A stretch of DNA of 49,920 bases from an uncultured Candidatus Saccharibacteria bacterium. Its GTDB lineage: Bacteria; Patescibacteriota; Minisyncoccia; 2-01-FULL-47-10; JBBTYX01. Positions 2,379 through 19,671 of this stretch are shown here, one piece after another. The stretch is taken from NCBI GenBank assembly GCA_964436845.1, contig CAYTEF010000001.1, positions 1 through 49,920 on the forward strand, read 5' to 3'. The position numbers and the translations under genes were made by a program. Every line of letters begins with the position of its first letter. The stretch's first letter is position 1. The notes beneath the pieces were generated by a model. It searched no databases, was not told the origin of the DNA, and worked only from the letters and a program-made list of their open reading frames with translations.

Positions 2379-3347
2379 ATCTACAAAAGTAGAAATTGGA
2401 TATAGGGATTAGACCGAGTCGTAAATCCGCCTCTCAGATTATCTACAAAAGTAGAAATTGGATATAGGGATTAGACGAAAATGTCAAGCGATTCCAAGCC
2501 GCATCTACAAAAGTAGAAATTGGATATAGGGATTAGACTTTTGAGCAAGCTGAAAGAATAGCCAATCTACAAAAGTAGAAATTGGATATAGGGATTAGAC
2601 TTCAAGTCTATATACTGCAGTCTCAATCTACAAAAGTAGAAATTGGATATAGGGATTAGACTTTTTGGAATAAGTGTGGAAACAGGAATCTACAAAAGTA
2701 GAAATTGGATATAGGGATTAGACATAATTACCACGCTATCAGTGTAGAATATCTACAAAAGTAGAAATTGGATATAGGGATTAGACACTTTAGGATTAAA
2801 AAGTTCCTCATATCTACAAAAGTAGAAATTGGATATAGGGATTAGACCGAGGGGTTATCAGGGGAACTAAACGAGATCTACAAAAGTAGAAATTGGATAT
2901 AGGGATTAGACTTCAGCATCAACTGCGGCGTTGACCATCTACAAAAGTAGAAATTGGATATAGGGATTAGACATAAAAAACTATGCAAAACAATCAACCA
3001 TCTACAAAAGTAGAAATTGGATATAGGGATTAGACACAAACGGGAGGAAACGAAAATGATATATCTACAAAAGTAGAAATTGGATATAGGGATTAGACGT
3101 AAAACAATCACAGTAGAAGCAGATAATCTACAAAAGTAGAAATTGGATATAGGGATTAGACCAAGCATACTCCGATGGGATACAAAGATCTACAAAAGTA
3201 GAAATTGGATATAGGGATTAGACAAAAAATGTTACTGTTGAAGCAGTAGTATCTACAAAAGTAGAAATTGGATATAGGGATTAGACAAACAAGATATTGA
3301 ATCTTGGTTGCATCTACAAAAGTAGAAATTGGATATAGGGATTAGAC
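2379..3347 (-). CRISPR. CRISPR array, type V-A style: 16 repeats of 36 bp, 15 spacers of 25-28 bp
   Basis: Identical repeats (minus-strand reading GTCTAATCCCTATATCCAATTTCTACTTTTGTAGAT) start at 2379, 2441, 2503, 2565, 2626, 2688, 2751, 2812, 2876, 2937, 3000, 3063, 3126, 3188, 3251 and 3312. All spacers are unique. The repeat 3' end forms the TCTAC-TTTT-GTAGA stem-loop typical of the Cas12a crRNA handle. Orientation matches the cas genes. Confidence 0.97.
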
Positions 3348-3533
3348 TGCGGAAATGGCTTTGTTAAGCACTAAAGATACAAATAGCGCTGAAAGAGTCG
3401 CTACGACTTTTTGGCTCAACAAAGCCACTTTTTGTTTTAGGAAATCCATAAAGACAAAGGTTTCCGCAGATAAAATATTGGTCTAATCACGTACACGACA
3501 ATTTCCGCTTTTTCTATTTATTTTTCAAGGCGC
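3348..3533 (-). promoter_or_regulatory. Putative CRISPR leader
   Basis: A 186-bp non-coding gap between the cas2 stop and the cas-proximal repeat. The leader role is inferred from position and orientation. No promoter hexamers could be assigned confidently. Confidence 0.55.
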
Positions 3534-3815
3534 TTACTCAAAGACAATCACGTCTTTTTCCTCATTTTTTGCATAGCCGTAGCGGATTACCTTCTTCTGG
3601 CACGCTTCGCAAAACGGCATAATAACCACGCTATCGGCGTTCCTGAACTGCTTTTTATACCGTAATTCTACCTCACTAATCACATTTTGCAATACCCTTT
3701 GGCTATGCTTTACTTCGTAAACAGAATATTGGATTTTTCGCCCGAATTTCTTCAAGAATTTTGAAAATCTTGCCCGTACATTATTATATTCAAAATCATA
3801 CGACACAATAAGCAT
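3534..3815 (-). CDS. cas2: CRISPR-associated endoribonuclease Cas2
   Basis: 93 aa starting MLIVSYDFE..., with Cas2-like size and ferredoxin-like pattern. It lies immediately downstream of cas1 and upstream of the array. Confidence 0.88.
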   Translation of the reverse strand: MLIVSYDFEYNNVRARFSKFLKKFGRKIQYSVYEVKHSQRVLQNVISEVELRYKKQFRNADSVVIMPFCEACQKKVIRYGYAKNEEKDVIVFE

Positions 3816-3817
3816 GG

Positions 3818-4780
3818 TCAGCGTGAAATCTTAAAATGGGGAAAGGGGTTAGCCTCACTATTCATGAAAAATCGATAGTAGCCTTGCACGTAACGATACA
3901 TCTCTTCCTTATGGTTCATGATTGCCTCAAGAAATACCTGTGCGTATTTCGCGCTATGTTCGAACGAAAGCAAAAGATTCCCATTCCTTTGCTTAAAATC
4001 CTTTTCTTGAATTTTTTTAAGCGTATACAGCTTGAGTACTTCTCTATCAATAATCGCCCTAAACGGCTCAACAATATCGCAAGTAAGAGATTTTCTTTGG
4101 AAAAAAAGTTTATGGTAACACCCTTTATACGTATCAAATCCATAAAGACAAAGTAAAGCGTCAAGAGTGTTGAACATCATCGTATATCCTATATCAAGAA
4201 GGAAATTTGGAATATCTGGCTTTACGCGGGGCATACGCCACGACCACCCGATTGGCCCAAAATATTCCTTAAAAAATTCTTTTGATACATTACCCTCTAT
4301 GCCGCGTAATGAATCCTGTTTTCCTGCACTATCTATTGCTTCCATAATTTCTTTTTCGCGCGCGACGATATTTTCCCCTATTTCCCGCGATTTTAGAAGC
4401 GAAATCTGATTTGCCACTTTATTTTTTACGATTTGCCGCGCGATAAAGAGCTCCTTGTCGTCTTCCAACTCATACTGGCGCATTCTTAAAAGATAGTTGC
4501 CTTCTGATGCCGCGTTTATCGCGGCATAGGGTTCAAAATTATATTTCAAGAGGAAAAATGATACTCCAAGACGTCTTGCCTGCTTAATGAGCTCGCTGGT
4601 GAGCGAAATATCGCCAATGATAAACGCCGCAAATACCCGATGGCACGATGCCCTATTTGCCACTTTATCATCCTTCAAAAACACAATATTATCATTCTGA
4701 AATCTAATTTTATTGGAAACATTACGCTGGGTTTGAATAAAAAGAATCTGCTTTTGTTTGAAATCAGGTAACGTGATCAT
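3818..4780 (-). CDS. cas1: CRISPR-associated endonuclease Cas1
   Basis: The ORF 3818..4834 opens with GTG at 4834, which would overlap cas4 by 46 nt. ATG 4780 (MITLPDFKQKQILFIQ...) avoids the overlap and is preferred. Length of about 320 aa and the position between cas4 and cas2 fit Cas1. Confidence 0.85.
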   Translation of the reverse strand: MITLPDFKQKQILFIQTQRNVSNKIRFQNDNIVFLKDDKVANRASCHRVFAAFIIGDISLTSELIKQARRLGVSFFLLKYNFEPYAAINAASEGNYLLRMRQYELEDDKELFIARQIVKNKVANQISLLKSREIGENIVAREKEIMEAIDSAGKQDSLRGIEGNVSKEFFKEYFGPIGWSWRMPRVKPDIPNFLLDIGYTMMFNTLDALLCLYGFDTYKGCYHKLFFQRKSLTCDIVEPFRAIIDREVLKLYTLKKIQEKDFKQRNGNLLLSFEHSAKYAQVFLEAIMNHKEEMYRYVQGYYRFFMNSEANPFPHFKISR

Positions 4781-4788
4781 AAAGATTT

Positions 4789-5328
4789 TTACCAGCTTAG
4801 CGCGCCGTAAATGCTCATCTCGCATTTTGAACACCGATGCGACAGTAATGTTTTTGGATCAAAATTCCTTATTGCGCTCAATATTTCCTCAAACCTTATT
4901 CGTTCCTTATCGGAAGGAAGCGGGACATCATAGTTTCTATTATCTTCCAGCGAACGTAAAATGAGTTTTTTCACCGGATAGCCCATTTCTTCAAGACAAA
5001 AATATTGCGCGTATAGTTGGCATATATATCCTTCAAAAATCTGTTTAATCCGCGTTTTGCGCTCGATGAGTGTCTGTGTTTGGGTATCATACATGTCAAT
5101 CTTGCCCATAATTTCGTACTTCTGGCTATACACCTCAAGCCCCACAATGAATCGCCGTGCCGTGGAGTAAGTATTTTCATCTATTGCTTCATGGCGCAAC
5201 TTGCCCACCACCTGCGGCTTTTCATGATAGGTTTTTTGTGAAAACCCCTCATACATCCCATGCAAATACAGCGACGCCGGGCAATACAAGAAATCATTTA
5301 TTTTTGAGATTTGGATATAGGGCTCCAT
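4789..5328 (-). CDS. cas4: CRISPR-associated exonuclease Cas4 (RecB-like nuclease)
   Basis: N-terminal Cys in FLYCPASLY, GKIDMYD, LIERKTR (E-x-K), QLYAQY (QxxxY) and C-terminal CSKC. The start overlaps the cas12a stop by one base (TAATG at 5326-5330). Confidence 0.85.
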   Translation of the reverse strand: MEPYIQISKINDFLYCPASLYLHGMYEGFSQKTYHEKPQVVGKLRHEAIDENTYSTARRFIVGLEVYSQKYEIMGKIDMYDTQTQTLIERKTRIKQIFEGYICQLYAQYFCLEEMGYPVKKLILRSLEDNRNYDVPLPSDKERIRFEEILSAIRNFDPKTLLSHRCSKCEMSIYGALSW

Positions 5329-6932
5329 TATTTTTGAACAAATTTATCCCAGTCGTACTCAGAAATATATATATCAGGGTTTCCCGGTCTTGTCGTGATT
5401 GCATCAAGAATCAACTTGCCTTTGCGTGCAATATTATAAGCCCCATTAGCATCGCCGTTAAACTCCTTAATTATTCGCTCTCCTTCGGGTCCTATAATCT
5501 TATTTCTAAAGTTTGCTAAATTTAACGGCGATAAATTGCCATATTTCTCGCTCTTAGCATAGGTACTAAAAAATGGTCTGACGGGTGAAGCAATAAAATC
5601 TATGTCTTCGCCTACTGACTTTATTCTTGTCTCGCCGCGTTCATCTTCATAACTTTCCCATTTCTCAGAGAAAGAATTGCGAATCTGCATTACTATGTTA
5701 AACAAATAAATAAAAGCGTGGTAAAAACTTCGCTCTCTGCCATCTATTACATACTTTTCCTCTAATTCCCCATCTTGGATTTTACGACATATTTCATCAT
5801 GCAAATCTGCTGCTTGCGGATCTTCAAATTCCCATAGCCTAAATAACTCCCCGAATTTTTCATTTACATCTATAGGCGTATATTGCCAATAACCTTTCTC
5901 GTCTTTTTCGCGCCTAATACGTGGAACTTTTGCGTATACTGTCCAGCCCTTTTGCGGAGAATACACGATATTCTTATATCTTTCCTCCACAAAATTTTTA
6001 GGATTATAAGTAAAAAAGTAGCTTTGCTCTTCTTCACCCCATCCGATGGCATCAAATTTTTCTATCGTTTCTTTTATCTTCTTCTGCGATGCAGAATTGC
6101 TAACGTATACATTCTTGCGAAAACCGGTCAAAGGATCAGTGCCTGAAGTATACTCGGCTTGTGTATAGAAAATAATGCCGGTTTGCTTGCCCATTTTTTC
6201 AAATGATACAAAGGGAGCAGTCAATTGATAACCCTTTAAAACCCCGCCAAATTCATGCGATTGTCGATTCTTGAAGATCAAATAACCAAATTTATCTATC
6301 AGTTGTTTTTCCAGTTGCTGATATACGCTCCGTTCAATACCGCCGCGAATTTGTTTAAAGCGCATATTCAGATCCTCCATTACCACAATGGCGTTATAAT
6401 GAATTGCGAAGTCGGCTATTTTCCGAACAACCTGGGAAACATACCCTTTCTTAATATCTTTAATTTTTGCTACTGGACTCCACGATTGCCTATTTCGTAA
6501 GCGTTCCTTCTCACAATTTACGAGTTTATCTCTATAGTTCTGGCCATTTATTTCATTCAAACTACCTTGGTCAAGAATTTCGCCGTTTTGATTGATAATC
6601 GAATAGTACACCAAGTGCTTCTCGCCACGATCAAGACCAATAATATTGACTTTATTTTGTCTCGCGTACTTTGCTAATTCAACTCTTATATTTTTATTGT
6701 ATCCACCAACAAAAGGCAATAATTTTCTTTCCGACATTTGTGGCTTCCTTGCGGCATAGTTCAATATAATGGAAAGGTGTAAAAAATATTTTCTTTCTGT
6801 GTATCTATTATAAACAAATTTGATTACCCTGAATTTATCTCTTAAGAACTTTGTTATATCTTTACCTTTTTCTTTCGTAAGGATATGTTTAGGATTATCC
6901 TTAATACTCTTGGTAAATTCTCGTAGAAACAT
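5328..6932 (-). CDS. cas12a: Cas12a (Cpf1) C-terminal fragment: WED-III, RuvC and Nuc
   Basis: RuvC-I IIGLDRGEKHLVYY, RuvC-II VVMEDLNMRFKQ, TDPLTGF, QIRNS, DFIASPV and RuvC-III GDANGAYNIARKG. Cas12a-like sequence in this frame continues upstream of the first ATG to 7014 (KNIHTFYFEQLFSEQNLKDPIFKISGGSE). Confidence 0.9.
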   Translation of the reverse strand: MFLREFTKSIKDNPKHILTKEKGKDITKFLRDKFRVIKFVYNRYTERKYFLHLSIILNYAARKPQMSERKLLPFVGGYNKNIRVELAKYARQNKVNIIGLDRGEKHLVYYSIINQNGEILDQGSLNEINGQNYRDKLVNCEKERLRNRQSWSPVAKIKDIKKGYVSQVVRKIADFAIHYNAIVVMEDLNMRFKQIRGGIERSVYQQLEKQLIDKFGYLIFKNRQSHEFGGVLKGYQLTAPFVSFEKMGKQTGIIFYTQAEYTSGTDPLTGFRKNVYVSNSASQKKIKETIEKFDAIGWGEEEQSYFFTYNPKNFVEERYKNIVYSPQKGWTVYAKVPRIRREKDEKGYWQYTPIDVNEKFGELFRLWEFEDPQAADLHDEICRKIQDGELEEKYVIDGRERSFYHAFIYLFNIVMQIRNSFSEKWESYEDERGETRIKSVGEDIDFIASPVRPFFSTYAKSEKYGNLSPLNLANFRNKIIGPEGERIIKEFNGDANGAYNIARKGKLILDAITTRPGNPDIYISEYDWDKFVQK

Positions 6933-6967
6933 TTCCGATCCTCCGGAGATTTTGAAAATAGGATCTT

Positions 6968-9427
6968 TTAAATTTTGTTCAGAAAAAAGTTGTTCAAAAT
7001 AAAACGTGTGAATATTTTTTTAGATGCTGGCTTTTTAAATTCTTCCCAATCCTTATTCTTAAGAAGAAATAGGTATAGACTACCACTTTTGAGTTTATCT
7101 TCTACCTGACTTTTATCCATTGGTATAAATGCATTTTCCGAGTATATTTCAATGCATACATCATTAACCGCTTTAGTAAATTCCTTTTTACTTTGAAACT
7201 TTCCATCGACTAATGATTGTAGACCAGGGTGCTTTTTGAGATGCCGTTCTCTGATAAATTGTTGAGCATCCATGATTGCTCGACTTTCATCTTTCTGTTC
7301 CGTATATTGATAACCAAATATAGGTTTGAACGCCTTATTAATGATATTTTGAAACTTTAATTGCGATGCCGGAAAATAAAGATAATCGCTCATCTTTTTG
7401 ATTCCCACTTTTTCATCTAATTCACGTTCACCTTTTTTAAGCACTCCGAGATAGAATTTATCTCTTCCGTTTATCATGCTCTTAAATAAATAAGAATTGT
7501 ATTGTTTTGAAAAGCCCTGAAGTAGAGTATCTTTCTCGAAATTAAGCTTTATCTTATTTTCGTCAAATGGCTTCTTGGTTATATAGTTTCGGAAAGCATT
7601 ATAATACTTGATAAGTTGAAAATCCTTAGCGTACGGTTCTAACTGCGCATAAAACTCTGTGCTAATATCCGTAAGTTTAGCCATATCAAGTTCATCCAGG
7701 GCCAAATATTTCATCATTTGATAAATACGCAAAGCGGCATCGGCGTAATTTTTAACTTTCGCAATTTCGTCTTTTTTACGCGCCTTAGAAAAATGTTTCA
7801 GTGTACATGCTTCTTTTAAACGACTATCGTAGCCATAAATAATGATACCATCTTCTCTTGTAGTATCAGTAAACAAGCCTTCAAATTCATACTTCCACAT
7901 GCTTAGAAATTGTTTCCATGGCTGATGATCTTGCCGAATAACGCCTTTTCTATAAAAATCCTCTCTAAAAGGTCTATCCTCCAGTCTTTCAATGGCCTCT
8001 TTTATGTCAGAAATCGTCACAAACTTTTTTACCTTAATCACATCGTTTTCCTTTTTATTTGAGGAGACCTGTGGCAAGTTCCTTTCAAAATCATAACCAC
8101 TCGCAAACCAGCGGCGTGAAATAGTATTGATAGTAGAATTTCTTACATAGATCCTCTCGTATTCTGATGCAAATTCCTTATCAATAAGGAATACCTGCAT
8201 AAATTTCTTAGCAGCATCAAATCGCACCTCATTTGCTGCTATAAATTCCTTGAATCTTTCAATAAAAATTTCTTCTTCTGTTTTTTCTTCAGTAGCCTCT
8301 ATAAGCTGTGCTTGCTGCTCTATCTCGCCCAAAATTTGTTTCTCAAGAGTCCTGAAAGTAGGAAAATTGCTTTTCTTAAAATCACCCTTTGCCGTTTTTG
8401 CTTCGCTGATTTTTTTATCCCCGTACTCTTTTATGACTTTATTTATGCGCCCAATGACTTTATTGTAAGAATTATCGCTGTCCTCTGCACCTTCTAGCGC
8501 TTCAATATTTTTCTGCAAAAGATACTTACTGTAATTTTCTACTTTGAAAATGTCAGCTTGCTCAAGACCAATCTCTTGAAAATTATCTTTATACTTTTCG
8601 TCAAAAATCCTTGCATTTGCTGAAAACAAATCAAAATTACTCACGATGCGAGTGGCTAACGCAGTTGCCATACCATTATCCGCGTAAACATTTTTGCGCG
8701 TCGCTTGAAATTTCGTTAGGTAGCCGGAAAAACGATCAAAGCTATCAAAAATATACCGTCGTTTGTTTGGGTTTTCGCTTTCCTCTACAAATAAACTCGG
8801 CCAGCCCAGTTTTTTGTATTCCACGTCCTTTGATGCGGGGAACTCGTATTTAAGTATTTGTAGAACGCCCGCCGATGTAAGAAATCCGACCCCTTTTTCA
8901 TTTTCCCTTTCTTCGTTGTTGTTATTTCTCTTCCCAAAATTAATTGCACTCCCATCTTCCAATTTTTTGCCAAAATAATATTTTTTCCATTCGCCTGCCT
9001 GGCGATTAAACAAATTGACGATTTGTTTATAAAAATCTTCCTTTGTGTCCTGTACCTTTTTTCCAAGGCTATTTATTTCCTTTTGTATGGAATCAGTCGC
9101 TTCCCTTTTCTCTCGTGCCAATCGCAGCACGATTCGTTTTTCATTAAGCTTTTTCTTTATTCCTTGCAAAAATTGTGCAAATGCGCGAAAATCCAGCTCC
9201 GCTACCTCATCGGGAGCTAATGCAGTATCTATAAATCTCTGATGGAGTTTATCAAAGTAAAACTTTGCTTGGCTATAACTATCGTCAATAGTTTTATCTT
9301 TCTCAAAAACTTTATTCTCCTTTAAAAATTGTTCAGTTTCTCCCACCGGTTTTAACTCAAATCTCAACGTTTTAGAAAGCTGATATTTTCCAACAAATTG
9401 ATTAAAAATACTTTCTCCATTAATCAT
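6968..9427 (-). CDS. cas12a: Cas12a (Cpf1) N-terminal fragment: WED-I/II, REC lobe and PI
   Basis: The N-terminus FVGKYQLSKTLRFELKPVGETEQFL is the Cas12a signature. ...SLYLFLLKNKDWEEFKKPASKK then runs out of frame and stops at 6968. Confidence 0.9.
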   Translation of the reverse strand: MINGESIFNQFVGKYQLSKTLRFELKPVGETEQFLKENKVFEKDKTIDDSYSQAKFYFDKLHQRFIDTALAPDEVAELDFRAFAQFLQGIKKKLNEKRIVLRLAREKREATDSIQKEINSLGKKVQDTKEDFYKQIVNLFNRQAGEWKKYYFGKKLEDGSAINFGKRNNNNEERENEKGVGFLTSAGVLQILKYEFPASKDVEYKKLGWPSLFVEESENPNKRRYIFDSFDRFSGYLTKFQATRKNVYADNGMATALATRIVSNFDLFSANARIFDEKYKDNFQEIGLEQADIFKVENYSKYLLQKNIEALEGAEDSDNSYNKVIGRINKVIKEYGDKKISEAKTAKGDFKKSNFPTFRTLEKQILGEIEQQAQLIEATEEKTEEEIFIERFKEFIAANEVRFDAAKKFMQVFLIDKEFASEYERIYVRNSTINTISRRWFASGYDFERNLPQVSSNKKENDVIKVKKFVTISDIKEAIERLEDRPFREDFYRKGVIRQDHQPWKQFLSMWKYEFEGLFTDTTREDGIIIYGYDSRLKEACTLKHFSKARKKDEIAKVKNYADAALRIYQMMKYLALDELDMAKLTDISTEFYAQLEPYAKDFQLIKYYNAFRNYITKKPFDENKIKLNFEKDTLLQGFSKQYNSYLFKSMINGRDKFYLGVLKKGERELDEKVGIKKMSDYLYFPASQLKFQNIINKAFKPIFGYQYTEQKDESRAIMDAQQFIRERHLKKHPGLQSLVDGKFQSKKEFTKAVNDVCIEIYSENAFIPMDKSQVEDKLKSGSLYLFLLKNKDWEEFKKPASKKIFTRFILNNFFLNKI
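7015..7021 (-). other. cas12a: Frameshift site in cas12a (A7 homopolymer on the coding strand)
   Basis: The coding strand reads GCA TCT AAAAAAA TAT TCA CAC. With 8 A the reading would be ...PASKKNIHTFYF..., continuous with the downstream Cas12a frame. With 7 A the frame ends 15 codons later. Confidence 0.85.
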
Positions 9428-11563: not shown

Positions 11564-11593
11564 TTGAACCTTCCTATCTTTTCACGCTATAAT
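11564..11593 (+). promoter_or_regulatory. Candidate promoter of the 11606-15186 operon
   Basis: TTGAAC (11564-11569), an 18-nt spacer, then TATAAT (11588-11593). The ATG lies 12 nt after the -10 box and no SD is present. Confidence 0.5.
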
Positions 11594-11605
11594 AGACCTT
11601 CAATT

Positions 11606-12385
11606 ATGAAATTACCCGAACATTTAGCAAGCAGCATGCAGAAATACTGGGATAAGCAAGAATCGCTATTTAAAGAAATAAAAAAGGCCGGCGGAATTAA
11701 TACCTACGTTAACTCCTTTGAAAAAAAGGGTGGGTTATTTACGCTGGAAAATCGTTCCGTTTGCTGTATAGATGAACGAACGACGCAAGGAAAAATCCAT
11801 TACGCGGGTTCGGGTATTCTTGATAGAGATCAGGCAATTAATCGTATAAAAAATATAGAAGCCGATGGCGTTTATAGCCACGAAGAATGCGGAGCCGCGG
11901 CCTTGGCATTTAAAGGCCTCTCGGAAGAGGAAAAGGAGAAATTTCAAACCCCTGAAGCATACGCGAAGTGGTGGGCAGAGCATGTTTCAAAAGAGCTCGG
12001 TATTCCTTATAAAGGACACCTGGAGACACATCCCAAATTCCACATCGCGCGCGTGAGCTATTATGACGGCACCGGACGATTTGATCCTTCGCAATCTGAT
12101 AAGCTTCCGCCGGGATTTTTGATAAGCCGCGCGTACCTTGACCCTGAATATGCGGCAAAGGAATTGGATTTAAGTGTCGCTATCGCCTTTGGCAAGGACG
12201 CTTTTGGAAAAGAAAAATTTATTGAATCGCCTTTCCTCATTATCCCTGTCGCGGATAAAGAAAGTTCCCACCTCACCCTTGAAATGCTTAAAGAAGAAGC
12301 GCAAAAGATCGCAAAAAATTATGAAGGGAAGGTAATTGTTGACGGATTGAGTGTTGATCTTGCCTCTCTTTTGCAAAAACCATGA
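11606..12385 (+). CDS. Hypothetical protein with beta-carbonic-anhydrase-like CxDxR and HxxCG motifs
   Basis: VCCIDERT and, 38 residues later, SHEECGAAA. The ORF-track start at 11564 is TTG and lies inside the promoter, so ATG 11606 (MKLPEHL...) is preferred. The stop overlaps the next gene (ATGA). Confidence 0.6.
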   Translation: MKLPEHLASSMQKYWDKQESLFKEIKKAGGINTYVNSFEKKGGLFTLENRSVCCIDERTTQGKIHYAGSGILDRDQAINRIKNIEADGVYSHEECGAAALAFKGLSEEEKEKFQTPEAYAKWWAEHVSKELGIPYKGHLETHPKFHIARVSYYDGTGRFDPSQSDKLPPGFLISRAYLDPEYAAKELDLSVAIAFGKDAFGKEKFIESPFLIIPVADKESSHLTLEMLKEEAQKIAKNYEGKVIVDGLSVDLASLLQKP

Positions 12386-13494
12386 GACTCATGGAAATTG
12401 AGGGGAAAAAACTTTTTGAGAAGTATGGCATTGCCATTCCTCAAGGCATACTCGCTAACGGGAAAGAGCGCCTTGCCCCGCTTGCCTCACCCGCCGTCAT
12501 TAAAGCACAGACGCTTTCGGGAAATCGCAAAAAAGAAGGCGGTATTTTTTTTGCGCGCGATACGCGAATGGCGCAAAGAGGCATTGCAAAAATCATAGGA
12601 AAAACCATCAGCGGAGAAAAAGTAAGGGAAGTGCTGGTTGAAGAAAAAATTTCTGCCGTAAAAGAATATTACATAGGCATCAGCTACGACACCGACGAAA
12701 GAGGACCCGTCCTTTTACTTTCACCCAAAGGCGGATCAGGTGTGACGAAGGCAAAAGCGATTCCCATTCATTTCAGCCTGGGCGTTCCTCCTTTTTTCTT
12801 GCGCGCGGCTTTAAAGGAGGCAGGGTTTTCCCTTGATGATGCTTCGGGCATTATTCCAGTTATTCAAAAATTATGGAAATTATTCTTGAATGAATATGCG
12901 CTTCTTGCCGAAATTAATCCCCTCTTTAAAACGAAAAAAGGAGACTTCATCGCCGGGGATGCAAAAATTATTTTGGACGATGAAAAGGTGAAGCCGGGCG
13001 AAAGACGATTTATTGAAATGGGAGGAAACATCGCGATTTTGGCTTCCGGTGGGGGCGCTTCACTCTTAAATATTGACGCACTCATGGGACACGGGGGAAA
13101 GCCGGCAAATTATACGGAGTATTCGGGAAATCCAAAAGGAGAAGTGGTAAGAGAACTTACTAAGCGCGTTTTAAATAAAGAAGGATTAAAAGGATGCTGG
13201 GTGGTGGGAGGAACGGCAAACTTTACCGACATTCATGAAACGATGAAGGGATTCGTGGAAGGGTTGCGCCAAGTTACACCAAAGCCCTCATACCCCATTG
13301 TTATCCGCCGCGACGGACCAAGGCAAAAGGAAGCGTTTGAAATGTTAAGTCAAGCGGCAAAAGAAGAAGGATATCAGTTTTACCTTTTTGGAGGCGAGAC
13401 GGCGATGGCTCAGACGGCGAGGATTATGGTGAAGTTGGCATATGATGATTCAAAGCGTAAAGCGAAAAGCGAAAAGCGTAAAATAATAACGTAA
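12382..13494 (+). CDS. sucC: Succinyl-CoA synthetase beta-like ATP-grasp subunit (possible citryl-CoA synthetase large subunit)
   Basis: N-terminus MEIEGKKLFEKYGIAIP, LAEINPL, and GNIAILASGGGASLLNIDALMGHGGKPANYTEYSG, which matches the SucC CoA-ligase region. Confidence 0.8.
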   Translation: MRLMEIEGKKLFEKYGIAIPQGILANGKERLAPLASPAVIKAQTLSGNRKKEGGIFFARDTRMAQRGIAKIIGKTISGEKVREVLVEEKISAVKEYYIGISYDTDERGPVLLLSPKGGSGVTKAKAIPIHFSLGVPPFFLRAALKEAGFSLDDASGIIPVIQKLWKLFLNEYALLAEINPLFKTKKGDFIAGDAKIILDDEKVKPGERRFIEMGGNIAILASGGGASLLNIDALMGHGGKPANYTEYSGNPKGEVVRELTKRVLNKEGLKGCWVVGGTANFTDIHETMKGFVEGLRQVTPKPSYPIVIRRDGPRQKEAFEMLSQAAKEEGYQFYLFGGETAMAQTARIMVKLAYDDSKRKAKSEKRKIIT

Positions 13495-13562
13495 AACTAA
13501 AAATATTTTTAATTTTGCATCGTTGCTTTGCATTTTTCGTTTTTCGCTTTACACTTAAATTC

Positions 13563-14477
13563 ATGAGCATCTTAATAGACGAAAAAACAAACGTATTGAT
13601 CCAGGGAATCACGGGCAATGAGGGTTCGCGCGCGTGCCGCGAGATTCTTTTATATGGAACAAAGGTACGCGCAGGGGTTACGCCGGGAAAAGCGGGACAA
13701 AAAGTGCATCGTGTTCCGGTCTATGATACAATCAAGGAAGCATTGAAAAAGTATCCTGATATTAATACCTCGCTCATCGCGGTTCCGGCAGCATTTGTAA
13801 AAGATGCCGCAATGGAGGCGATATGGAATAAAATTCCTTTAATTGATATTCTAACCGAGCACGTGCCCACCGAGGATAGTGCCATGATCCTTGCATTCGC
13901 TCGCGAACGCGGAATGCGCCTTGTGGGGCCTGCTTCCGTTGGCATCATCTCTCCGGAAAAAGCAAAAGTGGGAAGTATTGGAAGCTCGGAAGTTGAGAAA
14001 GTATTTAAAAAAGGAGGGATCGGCGTTGTCTCAAAGAGTGGGGGCATGACCGCAGAAATCGCCTCTATTCTTACGCGGGCAGGGTTTGGACAGAGTACGG
14101 TGGTGGGAATAGGGGGAGACCAGATTATAGGATCTGATTTTTGCGATATCCTTGAACTATTTGAAAAAGACAGCGAGACAAAAGCGGTTGTCATGTTTGG
14201 AGAAATTGGCGGCACATACGAGGAAAAGGCGGCAGAATATATTCGCGAAGGGAAGTATAGCAAGCCAGCGGTTGCCATTATTGCAGGAAAATTTACTTCA
14301 TACCTCCCAAAGGAAACCGTGCTGGGCCACGCGGGCGCTATAGTGGCAAAAGGCCGCGGCAGTTATGCGTCAAAGGTGAGCGCGTTAAAGCGCGCCGGGG
14401 TGCTTATGGCAAAAACATTGGAGGAAATTCCCATACTTTTAAAGAAGGTACGTTATGAAGTGGCGAACATCCATTAG
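13563..14477 (+). CDS. sucD: Succinyl-CoA synthetase alpha-like subunit (possible citryl-CoA synthetase small subunit)
   Basis: MSILIDEKTNVLIQGITGNEG, GVVSKSGGMT, GQSTVVGIGGD and the phosphohistidine loop LGHAGAIV. ATG 13563 is preferred over the ORF-track start at 13515. Confidence 0.85.
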   Translation: MSILIDEKTNVLIQGITGNEGSRACREILLYGTKVRAGVTPGKAGQKVHRVPVYDTIKEALKKYPDINTSLIAVPAAFVKDAAMEAIWNKIPLIDILTEHVPTEDSAMILAFARERGMRLVGPASVGIISPEKAKVGSIGSSEVEKVFKKGGIGVVSKSGGMTAEIASILTRAGFGQSTVVGIGGDQIIGSDFCDILELFEKDSETKAVVMFGEIGGTYEEKAAEYIREGKYSKPAVAIIAGKFTSYLPKETVLGHAGAIVAKGRGSYASKVSALKRAGVLMAKTLEEIPILLKKVRYEVANIH

Positions 14478-15186
14478 CGTCCATAAAGGAGACGAATTAT
14501 ATATAAGAGGGAGAAGGCTCACGGAAGTTATTGAAACATTCTCCTTTACCGAGGCGATTTTTTTCTTGATCAAGGGAACGTTTCCTTCAGGAAAAGAAAC
14601 GCGAATGCTTGACGCCATGCTTTGCGCCATGGTAGAGCATGGAATTGCGGCCCCTTCCACGTTTGTGGCGCGCACCGCGATTTCTGTGGGCAACACGTTT
14701 AATTCAGCCCTTGCCGCGGGGATTCTTGCCATTGGCGAACACCACGGCGGAGCGATTGAGAAATGCGCCTACTACCTTTCTCTTGATAAAAGTGCGGAAA
14801 ACATTGTGGATGAGGTATTGAATAAAGGTGAAAAACTTCCCGGATTCGGCCATAAAGTGTATAAAAATAAAGACCCGCGGGCAGAAATTCTTTTTACAAA
14901 AGCAAAGGCGCTGGGATTTAGCGGAACATTTGTCGCCCGAGCCCTCGCGCTGGAAAAAGAATTAAAGAGAAAAACAAATAAATTCCTCCCTATAAATATT
15001 GACGGCGCGGCTGCCGCGTTGATACTTGAGCTTGGATTTGACTGGAGGTTAGGCAAAGCATTCTTCGTTTTGGGACGCCTTCCGGGCTTAATCGCGCACG
15101 CGCACGAAGAATTAATAAGAGAGAAACCCTATAAAAGATTAGAAGAAAACGACATTGAATATGACGGCCCAAAACTTAAAACGTAA
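14455..15186 (+). CDS. Citrate synthase-like domain protein, short form (citryl-CoA lyase-like, 243 aa)
   Basis: EHHGGA, LPGFGHKVYKNKDPR and PINIDGAAA are citrate-synthase-family catalytic motifs. The size matches stand-alone citryl-CoA lyase and the ACLY C-terminal module. Confidence 0.75.
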   Translation: MKWRTSISVHKGDELYIRGRRLTEVIETFSFTEAIFFLIKGTFPSGKETRMLDAMLCAMVEHGIAAPSTFVARTAISVGNTFNSALAAGILAIGEHHGGAIEKCAYYLSLDKSAENIVDEVLNKGEKLPGFGHKVYKNKDPRAEILFTKAKALGFSGTFVARALALEKELKRKTNKFLPINIDGAAAALILELGFDWRLGKAFFVLGRLPGLIAHAHEELIREKPYKRLEENDIEYDGPKLKT

Positions 15187-16459
15187 TATTCTCACACGAA
15201 AAGCAAATGTTGCCGTGGTTGGACTAGGATACGTGGGGCTTCCCCTCAGCATCGCCTGCGCGAATGCCGGATTTAGGGTATTCGGGATTGGGAAGGATAA
15301 GGGGAAAATTGAAAAACTCAAGAAAGGTGAGAGCTATATCGGCGACGTCTCATCAGAGGAAGTGAAAAAGGCAATAGCGAAAAAACGATTTATCCCAAGC
15401 CTAGACGCGTCATCTCTTAAAAAAGCGGACATTATTCTTATTTGCGTTCCAACACCGCTTGATAAGTATAAAATCCCTGACGCAAGTTACATTGAAGAAG
15501 CAACAAAAACAATTGCTTCACACTTAAAAAGGGGCCAACTCGTTATACTGGAAAGTACCACCTACCCTTGCTGTACCGAAGAGTTAGTAAAGCCGCTCCT
15601 TGAACAAAGCGGCCTCAAAGCGGGAAATAATTTTTGGCTTGCGTTTTCCCCTGAACGCGTTGACCCGGGTAATACTTCCTATCCCCTTTCAAAAATTCCT
15701 AAAATCGTGGGGGGGATTGATAAACATTCAACAGATCTAGCGGCTCTTTTTTACGAACAATTTACTCCCAAACCCTTCAAGGTTTCCTCTCCGCGTGCCG
15801 CAGAAATGGCAAAACTTCTGGAAAATATTTTCCGGCTCGTAAATATTTCCCTTGTCAATGAGCTTTCCCTTCTCTGTGGGAAAATGGGCGTTGATATTTG
15901 GGAAGTAATTGAAGCGGCGAAAACAAAGCCGTATGGATTTATGCCCTTTTACCCTTCACCAAAAATTGGAGGACATTGTATTCCTTTAGATCCATTTTAC
16001 CTCTCCTGGAAGGCAAAAGAATATAACTTTTGGCCGCGCTTCATTGAACTGGCCGGAGAAATAAACGAACAAATGCCGCACTATGTGGTAACAAAAGTTA
16101 TCTCGGCGCTCAATGGTGTCAAGAAGTCGGTCAAGGGCTCAAAAATATTGATATGGGGAGTAACGTATAAAAAAGATATCGCCGACGAGCGGGAGTCCGG
16201 CGCATTTGAAATTATGTGGGACCTTGAAAGAAAAGGCGCAAAACTTGACTATTTTGATCCTTTTGTAAAAACCTTCACCGTTAACAAAAAATTGAGAAAA
16301 TCTATTTCCTATAAGCCAAGAATGCTTAAATCATACGACCTCGTTCTCATCCTTGCGGATCATTCAGGGTTTGATTACGAAGAACTTGCGCGCAATGCGG
16401 GGTTAGTAGTGGACACACGAAATGCGATTAAAGCGCGGCATTCTCATGTAATACGCTAA
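15155..16459 (+). CDS. wbpA: UDP-N-acetyl-D-glucosamine/mannosamine 6-dehydrogenase (WbpA/WecC family)
   Basis: Rossmann motif VAVVGLGYVGLP, ICVPTP, FSPERVDPGN and the catalytic Cys in GGHCIPLDP. The start is uncertain (15155 or 15161) and overlaps the upstream gene. Confidence 0.8.
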   Translation: MNMTAQNLKRNILTRKANVAVVGLGYVGLPLSIACANAGFRVFGIGKDKGKIEKLKKGESYIGDVSSEEVKKAIAKKRFIPSLDASSLKKADIILICVPTPLDKYKIPDASYIEEATKTIASHLKRGQLVILESTTYPCCTEELVKPLLEQSGLKAGNNFWLAFSPERVDPGNTSYPLSKIPKIVGGIDKHSTDLAALFYEQFTPKPFKVSSPRAAEMAKLLENIFRLVNISLVNELSLLCGKMGVDIWEVIEAAKTKPYGFMPFYPSPKIGGHCIPLDPFYLSWKAKEYNFWPRFIELAGEINEQMPHYVVTKVISALNGVKKSVKGSKILIWGVTYKKDIADERESGAFEIMWDLERKGAKLDYFDPFVKTFTVNKKLRKSISYKPRMLKSYDLVLILADHSGFDYEELARNAGLVVDTRNAIKARHSHVIR

Positions 16460-17154
16460 TGCAGTATAATAACGAACAAAAGCATACTCTCAAAGAAATT
16501 GAAGCGTACATAAAAGAACGCATGTCTTCGGCGGCTTCTGACGTGGAAGTAAAAACCCATGATTGGAAGCATGCCTTTCGCGTGAGAAACTGGGCATTGA
16601 AGATTGCGAAGGGCGAGAAATATGAAAATGCCTTTCTCCTTGAGGTCGCTTCTCTTTTGCACGATATTGGTAGATTGCAAGAGAAAGAATTAAAAAAACC
16701 TCATGCCTACGTGAGCGCTCTCATGGTAAAGGAGTATCTGACCCTTAAGAATTGGCTTTCCGATAGGGACTTACGTGATATTATTTACGCGATTGAGAAT
16801 CATTCGCGAGGAGGAAAAGGTTTGTTGGTTGCCATCTTACAGGATGCGGATCGTCTTGACGGACTTGGCGCTATAGGATTGATTCGCGGTATTCAACCCA
16901 AGTGGTATCTTCCTGATTACGATCCTCACGCGATTGTGAATCCTTTTAAAATGTCTCCCGAAGAGATTACCGATTTCTTTAGGGAAAATCCGCAAGGAGA
17001 GCTGGTATCCTACGCCGTTGATCATATCGCTTATCAGGCAACGTGGTATGACCGCATGAACACCAAAACCGGAAGAAAGCTGGGGAAACCGCTTGTTGAA
17101 TACACAGAAGCATTCCTCGCAGAGCTTAAGCGCGAAGCGGAAGGATCTTTCTGA
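16459..17154 (+). CDS. HD-domain phosphohydrolase
   Basis: THDWKHAFRV ... LLHDIGR ... DADRLD metal-binding pattern. TAATG overlap with the upstream stop. Confidence 0.75.
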   Translation: MQYNNEQKHTLKEIEAYIKERMSSAASDVEVKTHDWKHAFRVRNWALKIAKGEKYENAFLLEVASLLHDIGRLQEKELKKPHAYVSALMVKEYLTLKNWLSDRDLRDIIYAIENHSRGGKGLLVAILQDADRLDGLGAIGLIRGIQPKWYLPDYDPHAIVNPFKMSPEEITDFFRENPQGELVSYAVDHIAYQATWYDRMNTKTGRKLGKPLVEYTEAFLAELKREAEGSF

Positions 17155-18106: not shown

Positions 18107-19090
18107 ATGCCTTCTAAAGGAAAAAAGCATGTGGCCCTCATAGGGGCAGGATATTGGGGGAAAAATTTACTTCGCGTATTTGATCAATTAGACGTACTTG
18201 ACACTATATGCGATATTGACCGTGCTCTGCTCGCTGAAAGGAAAAAAGCATATCCTCATCTAAGCATAACGCCCCAAATCTCTACGATCTTAAAGAATAG
18301 AAACATCACGAGCATAGCAATTGCAACTCCGGCAAAGACCCACTATGCCGTAGCAAAGAACGCCCTCAAGGCGGGAAAAGATGTCTTTGTTGAAAAACCC
18401 TTAGCACTCAATGTAAGCGAGGGTGAGGAATTGGTAGCCCTTGCCCGCGAAAAGAAAAGGGTCTTGATGGTAGGACACGTTCTATCATATCATCCAGCCG
18501 TCACTGCTTTAAAGACACTCGTTGAAAAAAACACGATTGGCAACATTCATCACATTTATTCCAATAGACTTAATTTGGGTAAGATAAGGACCGAAGAAAA
18601 TGTGCTTTGGTCATTTGCCCCTCACGATATATCTATCATTCTTGACCTCATGGGAATGCCCTTTCAAGTAAGGTCTATCGGGAAAAGTTATTTGCAAGAA
18701 AAGATTCATGATACGACCATAAGCTTTTTTGAGTTTGAGAATGGTAAGGCAGCCCATATTTTTGTTTCATGGCTCAATCCATTTAAAGAACAGCGCCTTT
18801 CCATTATTGCACAAAAGGCGATGGTGGTATTTAACGACCAGGCAGAGGATAAGCTTATTAAGTATAATCATTTTCTCAACGGCTCTGAAACTGTAAAAGG
18901 CATTGGTGAAGCCATCCCCATACCTTCTGAAGAACCTTTGCGAAATGAGGTCATGCACTTTTTGCATTGTATCCGGACTAGGAATACGCCAAAAACTGAC
19001 GGGAGGGAGGCATTAGCTGTTTTGAAAGTCTTAAACGCTTGTCAGGAATCTCTAGACCAGGATGGCAAAATTATATCTATATCCTTATGA
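18107..19090 (+). CDS. wbpB: Gfo/Idh/MocA oxidoreductase (WbpB-like UDP-GlcNAcA 3-dehydrogenase)
   Basis: [12 protein letters not shown] Rossmann motif and VFVEKPLA motif. It sits with WbpD, WbpE and WbpI-like genes. Confidence 0.75.
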
Positions 19091-19671
19091 AAACCTACTG
19101 GGCTCATAAAACCGCGGAAATTCAAACACCCGTTTCTATAGGAAAGGGAACCCGTGTTTGGCACCATGCTCAAATTATGAAAGGCGCGCACATAGGAGAG
19201 GAGTGCACTATTGGACACAACTGTTTTGTCGCTTCCCGCGTGGTATTGGGCAGGGGGGTAAAAATTGAATCAAATGTGGATGTGTGGGACCTTGTAACGT
19301 TAGAAGACTATGTCTTTGTTGGGCCATCCGCGGTATTCACCAATGATCCAAATCCAAGGGCAAAGTATCCAAAATCACATTTCCCCGAGTACGGCAAATG
19401 GCTTCCTACGGTTGTCAGAGAGGGAACTTCCATAGGAGCAAACGCGACGATTGTTTGCGGAAACACCATTGGAAAGTGGGCTATGGTAGGTGCGGGTGCC
19501 GTTGTTACGAAGGATGTACCGGATTATGCGATAGTCGTTGGCGTACCGGCGCGAGTTTCTGGATGGATTTGCGAATGCGGCAACGCCCTTTCATTCAAAA
19601 ACGAAAAAGCAAAATGTAAAATATGCAAACGTTCATATAAAAAGAAGGGAACGCGGGTATGGAATTCTTAG
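19087..19671 (+). CDS. wbpD: Hexapeptide-repeat N-acetyltransferase (WbpD-like)
   Basis: Left-handed beta-helix repeats ([32 protein letters not shown]). C-terminal Cys pairs WICECG...CKICK. ATGA overlap with the wbpB-like stop, so ATG 19087 is preferred over 19039. Confidence 0.75.

Follow-up and report, generated by a model that had tools for sequence, protein, structure and literature searches.

Cleavage of citrate in two steps, by a citryl-CoA synthetase made of CcsA and CcsB and by a separate citryl-CoA lyase (Ccl), is known from Hydrogenobacter thermophilus TK-6 (Aoshima et al. 2004), with structures 6HXQ and 6HXP from Verschueren et al. 2019; both works are cited after PMC11365397. The related ATP-citrate lyase (ACL) is represented by the two-subunit AclB/AclA enzymes of Chlorobium and Methanothrix (6HXJ, 6HXI) and by the single-chain human ACLY (3MWD, 6HXH). 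Citrate scavenging by CPR bacteria has already been proposed in print: Sieber et al. (2019, mBio, PMC6851277) described a putative ACL in a Gracilibacterium and suggested that it breaks down citrate from outside the cell to oxaloacetate and acetyl-CoA. The kind of enzyme is already known, and public databases annotate citrate-cleavage genes of this kind, while their pipelines sometimes label such genes as succinyl-CoA synthetase (SCS) or citrate synthase (CS) (preprint 10.1101/2022.10.25.513756).

The window analysed here is a stretch of 49,920 nt from an uncultured Candidatus Saccharibacteria bacterium. The features relevant to the discussion are the following.

11564..11593, forward strand: promoter-like site TTGAAC-18 nt-TATAAT upstream of ORF1, 10/12 consensus matches
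11606..12385, forward strand: ORF1, conserved hypothetical, 259 aa, true start ATG 11606
12382..13494, forward strand: ccsA-like gene, 370 aa, SucC-like, ATP-grasp_2 plus ACL-type citrate-binding domain
13563..14477, forward strand: ccsB-like gene, 304 aa, SucD-like, with CoA_binding, Ligase_CoA and Succ_CoA_lig (Pfam)
14455..15186, forward strand: ccl gene, 243 aa, citrate-synthase C-terminal fold
15161..16459, forward strand: WbpA/WecC-like UDP-N-acetyl-hexosamine 6-dehydrogenase, with UDPG_MGDP_dh N, central and C domains, TIGR03026 426 bits
18107..21829, forward strand: WbpB-like (GFO/IDH/MocA), WbpD-like, WbpE-like (DegT) and WbpI-like (UDP-GlcNAc 2-epimerase family) genes
19039-19671, forward strand: the WbpD-like hexapeptide N-acetyltransferase, four genes downstream of ccl

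The original prediction had assigned the whole of 11564-15186 to three overlapping genes. The three genes exist and are intact, but the span holds four ORFs, the first of which is neither SucC-like nor matched in Pfam or NCBIfam, and the module proper occupies 12382-15186. The supposed overlap is real between ccsB and ccl (23 nt) but is replaced at the ccsA-ccsB junction by a gap of 68 nt, with the ccsB start at ATG 13563, from which the N-terminus MSILIDEKT... is identical to that of E. coli SucD. ORF1 overlaps ccsA by 4 nt, and ccl overlaps the next, WbpA-like gene by 26-32 nt. The TTG at 11564 falls within the promoter-like site; the transcription unit probably begins there, to judge from a consensus match alone, which is weak evidence, and the count of promoter-like sites in the region is not above that in shuffled sequence. 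Despite its position within the span, ORF1 is outside the citrate module. It belongs to a Patescibacteria-wide family (126 homologues, all labelled 'hypothetical') with invariant residues C54, D56, H92, C95 and H146; its AlphaFold model (pLDDT 95.5) found no fold neighbour in the PDB, and only one further locus, L070, places it near a citrate cassette, its other contexts being unrelated.

The first gene of the module is predicted to encode the large (beta) subunit of citryl-CoA synthetase. The protein matches ATP-grasp_2 (1.5e-28) and Citrate_bind PF16114 (2e-22), stays under the NCBIfam cut-offs for SucC (159 bits vs 370) and MtkA, and has CcsA (6hxq_B) as its top PDB match, while its C-terminal domain scores 83 bits with Chlorobium AclB, 78 with CcsA and 43 with SCS-beta. 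All four ACL/CCS signature motifs (GGGAS, EYSGNP, ANFT, RRDGP) are present. In the alignment to PDB 3mwd, the human ACLY residues G309, N346-F347-T348 and R379 fall on EYSG, ANFT and RRDGP, motifs that 33/33 CPR beta subunits share with the ACL references; the E. coli and Thermus SCS-beta counterparts are D(V/I)GGG, GGI(V/T)R and R(L/V)xG. The tree places the protein with characterised CcsA/ACL, split from SCS-beta by a branch of 100% SH-aLRT, the three-gene CPR beta proteins forming branches separate from that of H. thermophilus CcsA.

The product of 13563-14477 is the predicted small (alpha) subunit, although its PDB score with archaeal SCS-alpha (302 bits) exceeds those with CcsB (219) and AclA (167). 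It carries the phosphohistidine loop GHAGAIV at residue 255, is 47-51% identical to SCS-alpha and reaches 310 bits with TIGR01019, under the cut-off of 353. In the alpha tree, which contains two SCS-alpha references only and leaves out CcsB, it groups with CPR ACL alpha domains, split from SCS-alpha by branches of 98-100%.

The third gene, 14455-15186, appears by homology to encode citryl-CoA lyase. The protein has no N-terminal part of citrate synthase, carries the motifs HHGGA, GFGHKVYKNKDPR and NIDG, and scores 273 bits with NCBIfam NF004869 'citryl-CoA lyase' (cut-off 212) and 233 bits with H. thermophilus CCL (PDB 6hxp; 47.9% identity over 236 residues), its top citrate synthase score being 92 bits. 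Residues H97, H133, D183, R142 and R208 align to E. coli GltA H265, H306, D363, R315 and R388, and the catalytic His/His/Asp and the substrate arginines are invariant in 29 CPR homologues. H. thermophilus CCL is nested within the CPR Ccl clade, and citrate synthases are split off at 98-100% SH-aLRT. The domains and motifs that were first read from the locus (a SucC-like ATP-grasp protein, a SucD-like protein with GHAGAIV, a 243-aa citrate-synthase-fold protein) are therefore confirmed, scores and trees agree with the Aquificae-type two-step identity, and the phylogenetic check that had been called for sets Ccl and the beta subunit outside citrate synthase and SCS at 98-100% SH-aLRT.

The data suggest that 12382-15186 is probably a Hydrogenobacter-type, two-step ATP-dependent citrate cleavage module serving as an anabolic generator of acetyl-CoA for amino-sugar acetylation. 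The identities of the genes, the conserved motifs, the absences from the genome and the synteny counts are results of the analysis; we infer the enzymatic activities, flux direction, citrate source and acetyl acceptors, the mechanistic steps from homology and the role from gene content and synteny. In the CcsA/CcsB heteromer, ATP would phosphorylate the active-site histidine of the GHAGA loop of CcsB, citrate bound in the C-terminal domain of CcsA would become citryl-phosphate, and transfer of its acyl group to CoA would yield citryl-CoA, ADP and Pi. The free-standing Ccl would then split citryl-CoA into acetyl-CoA and oxaloacetate by the His/His/Asp machinery of citrate synthases. The citrate may be scavenged from the host or the surroundings; the acetyl-CoA would go to amino-sugar N-acetyltransferases, namely the WbpD-like enzyme encoded in the same run of genes and a GNAT on contig C20, and the CoA that they free would return to CcsAB.

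The overlap of ccl with the WbpA-like gene, the first of a WbpA/B/D/E/I di-N-acetyl-sugar pathway, ties the citrate module to a glycan cluster. The cluster of N-acetylated-sugar genes that had been noticed downstream is indeed there and extends over more than 30 kb, comprising besides the WbpA/B/D/E/I set two NeuB, a CMP-transferase, PseB-like and DegT proteins, epimerases, glycosyltransferases and a flippase. The WbpD-like enzyme is the nearest acetyl-CoA consumer to ccl and the only hexapeptide acetyltransferase recovered by tblastn of the genome, in which a GlmU acetyltransferase domain was also sought and not found. GlmS and the GNAT orthologue are both encoded on contigs apart from the module; in relatives, orthologues of this GNAT directly adjoin ccl. 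Its top NCBIfam match is RimI, under the cut-off, and its PDB matches to GNA1 are weak; it may acetylate GlcN-6-P, a putative substrate.

The genome searched is one draft (0.9 Mb, 94.7% complete, 100 contigs), and absences from it rest on HMM or single-sequence searches, which divergent enzymes can escape. Among HMM matches in this genome there is no aconitase, POR_N, acetate kinase (AckA), PTA, Ldh_1_N (MDH/LDH), E2 acyltransferase (PDH E2) or second Succ_CoA_lig protein, and the single E1_dh match sits in a second glycan cluster. E. coli PflB, Ppc, Pck, MaeB, AspC, CitT, CitEF and AcnB found no counterpart by tblastn, nor did the genome yield ADP-forming acetyl-CoA synthetase (ACD), Acs, an AMP-binding enzyme, SdhA or a 2-oxoacid:ferredoxin oxidoreductase. 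No citrate transporter was recognised in the genome with E. coli CitT and DcuC alone as queries. The earlier statement that the window holds no other TCA-cycle gene thus extends genome-wide to each enzyme tested. Since the acetyl-CoA-forming enzymes sought are all absent, the module is the sole recognisable acetyl-CoA source in the genome. The absence of aconitase, PFOR and other acetyl-CoA enzymes therefore disfavours carbon fixation and the reverse reaction; together with the amino-sugar linkage, the lack of aconitase, PFOR/OGOR and any other acetyl-CoA-forming enzyme sought agrees with the supply role that had been preferred over carbon fixation. No oxaloacetate-consuming enzyme was found in the genome among MDH/LDH, malic enzyme, PEPCK, PEPC and AspC-type aminotransferase, so half of the reaction products have no visible fate.

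PF16114 occurs in 27/401 evenly sampled Patescibacteria genomes. An amino- or nucleotide-sugar link, meaning adjoining nucleotide-sugar genes, GlmS, YvcK/GlmR or an acetyltransferase of GNAT or GlmU type, is present at 14 of the 16 sampled three-gene loci and missing at two. At 9/16 a GNAT, a stand-alone GlmU-type LbH acetyltransferase or a GlmU-like gene lies at most three genes away, GlmS is within 7.5 kb of the module at 6/16 (p about 1e-7 by a simple binomial expectation), and YvcK/GlmR (TIGR01826, 305-330 bits) appears at several. The pattern is repeated by independent assemblies, and true AclB/AclA pairs stand in similar contexts at 10 of 26 sampled Patescibacteria loci; these synteny counts ignore shared ancestry, and CPR glycan clusters are large and common. 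PFOR is rarer in genomes with the module (7/27 vs 182/374; Fisher p = 0.027, phylogeny ignored). Many CPR genomes have neither the module nor PFOR, so evidently not every such genome encodes a source of acetyl-CoA.

The same enzymes could act on another acid (2-methylcitrate, isocitrate, malate, citramalate or itaconate) and give a different acyl-CoA, or a CoA ester with which sugars are decorated directly. The three-gene proteins of the CPR clade branch separately from H. thermophilus CcsA, the alpha subunit is SCS-alpha-like and glycan clusters sometimes require unusual acyl donors. Nevertheless, the original prediction's alternative of a different di- or tricarboxylate is unlikely, given the citrate-contacting motifs common to human ACLY: these are all kept, nearer to ACL than those of H. 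thermophilus CcsA are, the Ccl triad is invariant, as are the three arginines that bind the citrate/oxaloacetate carboxylates, and the neighbours across the phylum are GlmU- and GNAT-type acetyltransferases and no other acyltransferases. We consider it slightly less probable still that oxaloacetate, carbon or energy is the main purpose and acetyl-CoA a by-product, or is turned into acetate for ATP. Cleavage yields acetyl-CoA and oxaloacetate alike, and citrate was proposed as a source of both and of pyruvate for the ACL-bearing Gracilibacterium (PMC6851277). However, Pta, AckA and ADP-forming acetyl-CoA synthetase, by which acetyl-CoA could pay for ATP, are missing here, as are the oxaloacetate-using enzymes listed above; the cleavage step itself uses up one ATP, and the module's neighbours consume acetyl-CoA, not oxaloacetate.

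The ACL reaction is near equilibrium, and fermentative CPR bacteria need substrate-level phosphorylation, so that Ccl might condense acetyl-CoA with oxaloacetate and CcsAB hydrolyse the citryl-CoA and gain ATP, the whole acting as an ATP-conserving citrate synthase. This is very unlikely in a genome without a recognisable source of acetyl-CoA or oxaloacetate and without aconitase to use the citrate, and linkage to acetyl-CoA consumers is unfit for an enzyme that itself consumes acetyl-CoA. Least credible of all, and close to negligible, is an ordinary SCS with a truncated citrate synthase, as Krebs-cycle remnants or as part of reductive TCA (rTCA) CO2 fixation, in spite of the alpha subunit's identity to SCS-alpha and the labels given by annotation pipelines. 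It is contradicted by the missed SucC cut-off and the Citrate_bind domain, by the replaced succinate-site motifs of the beta subunit, by trees that set the genes apart from SCS and citrate synthase, and by the absence of aconitase, 2-oxoacid:ferredoxin oxidoreductase, SdhA and MDH from the genome.

Acetyl-CoA supply from citrate for amino-sugar acetylation is thus the reading preferred here, and the module is a credible example of an enzyme that is not new in kind, its setting being the informative part. It shares with the H. thermophilus system the three separate polypeptides of matching domain content, the phosphohistidine loop and citrate-synthase catalytic residues, a Ccl that is 48% identical and in a common clade, and CcsA as the top PDB match of the beta subunit. 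It differs in its smaller proteins (370 vs 429 aa, 304 vs 353 aa), in the contiguity and fixed order of the three genes, in beta citrate motifs of ACL type (EYSG, ANFT) where CcsA has DIGG and ANNT, and in an organism that is not an autotroph, has no rTCA cycle and places the genes beside amino-sugar genes. With SucCD of E. coli, Thermus and Aeropyrum it has in common the superfamily, the phosphohistidine chemistry and the alpha-subunit similarity, in contrast to the beta substrate site, the unreached NCBIfam cut-offs and the separate clades. The Gracilibacterium is likewise a CPR bacterium with an incomplete TCA cycle, but its ACL is of the fused two-subunit form, it also has an OFOR and putative citrate transporters, and the paper describing it drew no link to amino-sugar acetylation. 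ACL has the same predicted overall reaction and citrate-binding motifs; in the present module the lyase and the alpha subunit are separate chains, and citryl-CoA must therefore pass between two enzymes. The proposed role, a non-carbon-fixing supply of biosynthetic acetyl-CoA from imported citrate in a cell without a Krebs cycle, would resemble that of the eukaryotic cytosolic ACLY.

The interval 11564-15186, which the original prediction had read as three genes, is occupied by four co-directional ORFs. The last three of these constitute what, judging from sequence, is a genuine and intact citryl-CoA synthetase/citryl-CoA lyase (CCS/CCL) module of the type known from Hydrogenobacter thermophilus. 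The four ORFs are:

11606-12385 (+), ORF1, conserved hypothetical protein, 259 aa; the ATG start at 11606 agrees with the database protein
12382-13494 (+), ccsA-like gene (beta subunit), 370 aa; ATP-grasp_2 domain and PF16114 'ATP citrate lyase citrate-binding' domain
13563-14477 (+), ccsB-like gene (alpha subunit), 304 aa; CoA_binding and Ligase_CoA domains, GHAGAIV at residue 255
14455-15186 (+), ccl, 243 aa; citrate-synthase C-terminal fold

A TTG at 11564 falls within a promoter-like TTGAAC-18-TATAAT site. ORF1 and ccsA overlap by 4 nt. The overlap that had been predicted for the module genes themselves exists between ccsB and ccl (23 nt), while ccsA and ccsB are separated by a 68-nt gap. 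At its 3' end ccl overlaps a UDP-N-acetyl-hexosamine dehydrogenase-like gene by 26-32 nt. Since no convincing terminator breaks the gene string that leads from ORF1 into the glycan cluster, ORF1, ccsA, ccsB, ccl and the cluster are likely to form one transcription unit. Upstream of the module lies a type V-A CRISPR-Cas locus (2379-9427, (-)), in which the 819-aa ORF at 6968-9427 looks truncated and resembles Cas12a at its N-terminus.

The lyase scored 273 bits against the NCBIfam model NF004869 'citryl-CoA lyase' (cut-off 212) and stayed far under the cut-offs of all NCBIfam citrate synthase models. In the PDB the CCL of H. thermophilus (6hxp) gave 233 bits, with 47.9% identity over 236 residues, against 92 bits for the top citrate synthase. 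Citrate synthases and 2-methylcitrate synthases are about 370-430 aa in full length, whereas Ccl has 243 aa and covers only positions 164-350 of the PF00285 profile. The catalytic His/His/Asp of citrate synthase (H265, H306 and D363 of E. coli GltA) and its substrate arginines (R315 and R388) align with H97, H133, D183, R142 and R208 of Ccl, and these residues, together with R228, are invariant in 29 homologues from Patescibacteria (CPR). As is characteristic of CCS/CCL systems, Ccl is a separate protein of the ~250-aa size; it shares the fold and the His/His/Asp set of citrate synthase. In the tree all lyases are set apart from E. coli GltA and from the B. subtilis citrate synthase by a branch with 98% SH-aLRT support, and the H. 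thermophilus CCL is nested among free-standing CPR lyases that include the one studied here.

The large subunit combines an ATP-grasp domain with a citrate-binding C-terminal domain, as expected of CCS, and its top PDB match is H. thermophilus CcsA (143 bits). The C-terminal domain alone matched Chlorobium AclB with 83 bits, CcsA with 78, human ATP-citrate lyase (ACLY) with 55 and the beta subunits of succinyl-CoA synthetase (SCS) with 43 or less. In an alignment with PDB 3mwd, the beta subunit has the G of EYSG in the place of human ACLY G309, ANFT in that of N346-F347-T348 and the second R of RRDGP in that of R379; we take these ACLY residues to be citrate contacts, reportedly described by Sun et al. 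in 2010. The motifs GGGAS, EYSG(N/D)P, ANFT and RRxGP are kept in 33 CPR beta subunits and in the Chlorobium, Methanothrix and human references, whereas the SCS-beta subunits of E. coli and Thermus have NGAGL, D(V/I)GGG, GGI(V/T)R and R(L/V)xG at these sites. The CPR motifs are even nearer to ATP-citrate lyase (ACL) than is H. thermophilus CcsA, which has DIGG and ANNT.

These data bear on the other enzymes that the gene order could represent. As regards an ordinary succinyl-CoA synthetase, the small subunit is the least diagnostic of the three proteins. It carries the CoA-binding domain and the phosphohistidine loop expected of CcsB, though Aeropyrum SCS-alpha (302 bits) outscores CcsB (219) and AclA (167) among its PDB matches; it lies slightly under the NCBIfam SucD cut-offs (309-310 bits vs 336-353), and its N-terminus, MSILIDEKT, resembles that of E. 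coli SucD. The beta subunit, with SCS-type substrate-site motifs lacking, reaches only 159 bits against NCBIfam SucC (cut-off 370), and in the beta tree CcsA, ACL and every protein from CPR are divided by a 100% branch from the SCS-beta proteins of E. coli and Thermus. The alpha tree, built with few references and no CcsB sequence, likewise has a 100% branch between the E. coli and Aeropyrum SCS-alpha proteins and the CPR alpha subunits together with the N-terminal domains of CPR AclA. The beta subunit also falls short of the malate-CoA ligase model (MtkAB, NF010647), with 72 bits where 604 are required. In ACL itself the lyase forms a C-terminal extension of the alpha subunit; here alpha is 304 aa long and ccl is an ORF with its own start. 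The maximum-likelihood trees, drawn from CPR loci, from genes of E. coli K-12 and from PDB sequences as they stand in the alignments, separate the module proteins from both succinyl-CoA synthetases and citrate synthases, so that the phylogenetic outcome named beforehand as a refutation did not occur. For Ccl and the beta subunit, family scores, motifs and trees agree on the CCS plus CCL composition that had been proposed as one option.

Several observations concern homologues elsewhere. Lone ccl-like genes occur in Methanobrevibacter, Methanovirga and other Methanobacteriaceae (L016-L041 in our numbering of loci from other genomes); their products are 34-42% identical to the Ccl of the window and adjoin H. 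thermophilus CCL in the tree, and neither ccsA nor ccsB was found within 10 kb of them. The ccsA, ccsB and ccl of L019, on a contig labelled uncultured Gammaproteobacteria, are nested in each of the three trees within a CPR clade that also holds L070, L071 and L074, so that this contig is either mis-binned or the product of horizontal transfer. In one Patescibacteria lineage a NUDIX hydrolase gene (L056:5327-5803) sits between ccsB and ccl; its orthologue in our genome (59% identity) is on another contig, C26.

ORF1 had no Pfam or NCBIfam matches. It belongs to a Patescibacteria-wide family of 126 homologues, all annotated as 'hypothetical', with invariant Cys54, Asp56, His92, Cys95 and His146, and one homologue adjoins CsoR/HMA/P-type ATPase copper genes (L086). 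CxDxR-like and HxxCG motifs raised the idea of a beta-carbonic anhydrase, hinting at bicarbonate or oxaloacetate chemistry. This identity was rejected: there was no Pfam match even at E = 10, the motif arginine is not conserved, ORF1 is not syntenic with the module elsewhere, and no PDB fold proved to be a neighbour of the high-confidence AlphaFold model (pLDDT 95.5, pTM 0.92; Foldseek at best E = 0.019, TM 0.21). The model may represent a new metal-binding fold.

The window is contig C1 of a 0.895 Mb draft assembly in 100 contigs with 94.7% completeness and 1.1% contamination; the close homologues are all consistent with Patescibacteria. HMM searches of the six-frame translated genome found no aconitase (PF00330), POR_N (PFOR/OGOR), acetate kinase, PTA, second Succ_CoA_lig protein (ADP-forming acetyl-CoA synthetase), Ldh_1_N (MDH/LDH), AMP-binding enzymes (Acs) or 2-oxoacid dehydrogenase E2. 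Genome tblastn with E. coli K-12 queries found no PflB, Ppc, Pck, MaeB, AspC, CitEF, AcnB, SdhA or AceF and, with CitT and DcuC, no citrate transporter; no oxaloacetate-using enzyme was recognised in the searches of this draft. A TPP-dependent E1 alpha/beta pair (E1_dh, 253 bits) is present at 7281-9286 of contig C8, in a second glycan cluster, flanked by a Bac_transf sugar transferase and a DegT aminotransferase. It was rejected as a pyruvate dehydrogenase on account of this setting and because a genome without E2 cannot form the PDH complex; it probably serves sugar modification chemistry. Because of these genome-wide absences, carbon fixation by the reductive TCA cycle is excluded in this organism, as had been predicted, with aconitase, POR_N and SdhA all missing; the reverse, citrate-forming direction lacks substrates; acetyl-CoA cannot yield ATP; and the CCS/CCL module is the sole recognisable acetyl-CoA route.

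The genes that follow ccl may offer a use for this acetyl-CoA. The first encode a WbpA-like dehydrogenase and an HD-domain protein; past three small genes come WbpB-like (GFO/IDH/MocA), WbpD-like (hexapeptide acetyltransferase), WbpE-like (DegT) and WbpI-like (2-epimerase) proteins, and further 3' glycosyltransferases, a flippase, GDP-mannose dehydratase, Rml-type enzymes, two NeuB, a CMP-transferase and a PseB-like enzyme. The HD-domain phosphohydrolase gene (16459-17154, (+)), whose start overlaps the WbpA-like stop by one base, separates WbpA from the later Wbp pathway genes. GlmS is encoded on contig C74. No GlmU acetyltransferase (LbH) domain was found in the genome, where nucleotidyltransferase halves alone match, and the only hexapeptide transferase found is the WbpD-like one. 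Contig C20, in turn, carries an orthologue of a small GNAT that adjoins ccl in relatives. From scavenged citrate, ATP and CoA, CcsAB and Ccl would make acetyl-CoA and oxaloacetate; the N-acetyltransferases that act in UDP-GlcNAc and surface-glycan synthesis would draw on the acetyl-CoA, and the CoA would be used again. For a genome with no other recognisable acetyl-CoA route, the acetyl-CoA supply from citrate that had been suggested is the most economical reading.

The association with amino-sugar genes extends to other Patescibacteria. PF16114 is present in 27 of 401 genomes drawn evenly, and we examined the 26 other loci in 15-kb slices. Ten have the two-gene form, AclB plus a fused AclA of 590-611 aa (L060-L069), and 16 the three-gene form ccsA-ccsB-ccl seen in the window (L070-L085); amino-sugar genes adjoin both. 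In the beta-subunit tree the proteins of two of the two-gene loci, L060 and L061, fall together with human ACLY and Methanothrix ACLY-A. GlmS lies inside the slice at six of the 16 three-gene loci (L070, L071, L074, L081, L082, L083), with a binomial p of ~1e-7 (~15/900 genes per slice) for loci that are not phylogenetically independent and represent at least four families. An acetyltransferase is found within three genes at nine of the 16: a GNAT in L070, L071, L077, L078 and L082, a stand-alone LbH protein in L075, L076 and L084 (that of L076 matching the acetyltransferase half of archaeal-type GlmU), and a GlmU-like bifunctional gene in L073. A CofD-family (YvcK/GlmR) neighbour occurs at four (L070, L071, L074, L081); the one of these four that was scored, and also that of L056, passed the cut-off of TIGR01826 (UDP-GlcNAc-binding protein YvcK). 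The role of YvcK as GlmR, which regulates GlmS, is set out in PMC6171935 and PMC7525490. L080 and L085 lie among NeuB, DegT and CMP-transferase genes, and two of the 16 (L072, L079) have no amino-sugar link.

Eleven further loci from other assemblies, reached via Ccl homologues, gave the same picture: a GNAT directly 3' of ccl (L042, L044, L056, L057), GlmS near the module (L042, L056, L057, L058) or a nucleotide-sugar cluster (L003, L004, L006), with no clear amino-sugar link in L043 and L045. Neighbours were found with Pfam-annotated contigs and GlmS, GNAT and YvcK queries; BLAST with the window proteins missed links at several loci. The ccl-flanking GNATs are mutually orthologous (30-72% identity). 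Their top PDB match is 3fb3/3i3g, which we take to be the GlcN-6-P N-acetyltransferase of Trypanosoma brucei; the GNA1 proteins of five other eukaryotes match less well. Since these GNA1 matches are weak and NCBIfam yields RimI alone, sub-threshold, a GNA1 identity is a lead, not a result. PFOR is rarer in genomes with the module (7/27 vs 182/374; odds ratio 0.37, Fisher p = 0.027, uncorrected for phylogeny).

From this point of view, the citrate-cleaving genes of Patescibacteria, whether CCS/CCL or ACL, may provide the acetyl-CoA within a conserved 'hexosamine supermodule', whose other members would be GlmS, the UDP-GlcNAc sensor YvcK/GlmR and an interchangeable acetyltransferase (a small GNA1-like GNAT, the stand-alone LbH half of GlmU or a full archaeal-type GlmU). 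Cells like the present one, which lack both a further source of acetyl-CoA and the acetyltransferase domain of GlmU, would depend fully on host-derived citrate for N-acetylating the precursors of peptidoglycan and surface glycans, and would use a eukaryote-like GlcN-6-P acetylation route. Taken as a whole, this proposal is tentative and in our estimate possible rather than probable.

Patescibacteria account for much of bacterial diversity; most of them are uncultured, and their metabolism is puzzlingly incomplete. If citrate is the acetyl-group currency for their wall and surface glycans, this names a metabolite that has to reach them from a host or from their surroundings, would explain the acetyl-CoA supply in genomes without PFOR or PDH, and would suggest citrate as a medium supplement and labelling target for cultivation.

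Neither the enzyme family nor its annotation in these genomes is new, and citrate scavenging has been put forward before as a general idea. Enzymes of the CCS/CCL kind have been described since 2004, with structures from 2019 (as cited in PMC11365397), and NCBI already names CPR proteins 'citryl-CoA lyase'. A 2022 preprint (10.1101/2022.10.25.513756) placed CPR and DPANN sequences with CCS/CCL, a 2025 study found aclAB enriched in Saccharimonadia, and Sieber et al. [quoted passage not shown] Within our incomplete coverage of the literature, no paper was found that ties the module to GlmS, YvcK or acetyltransferase genes. The setting of the module is physiologically informative and was partly anticipated already. 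The CPR three-gene form joins ACL-type citrate-site motifs to an unfused lyase, which makes it useful as an intermediate between CCS/CCL and ACL in considering the evolution of these enzymes, and the role proposed for it is the same as that of the cytosolic ACLY of eukaryotes.
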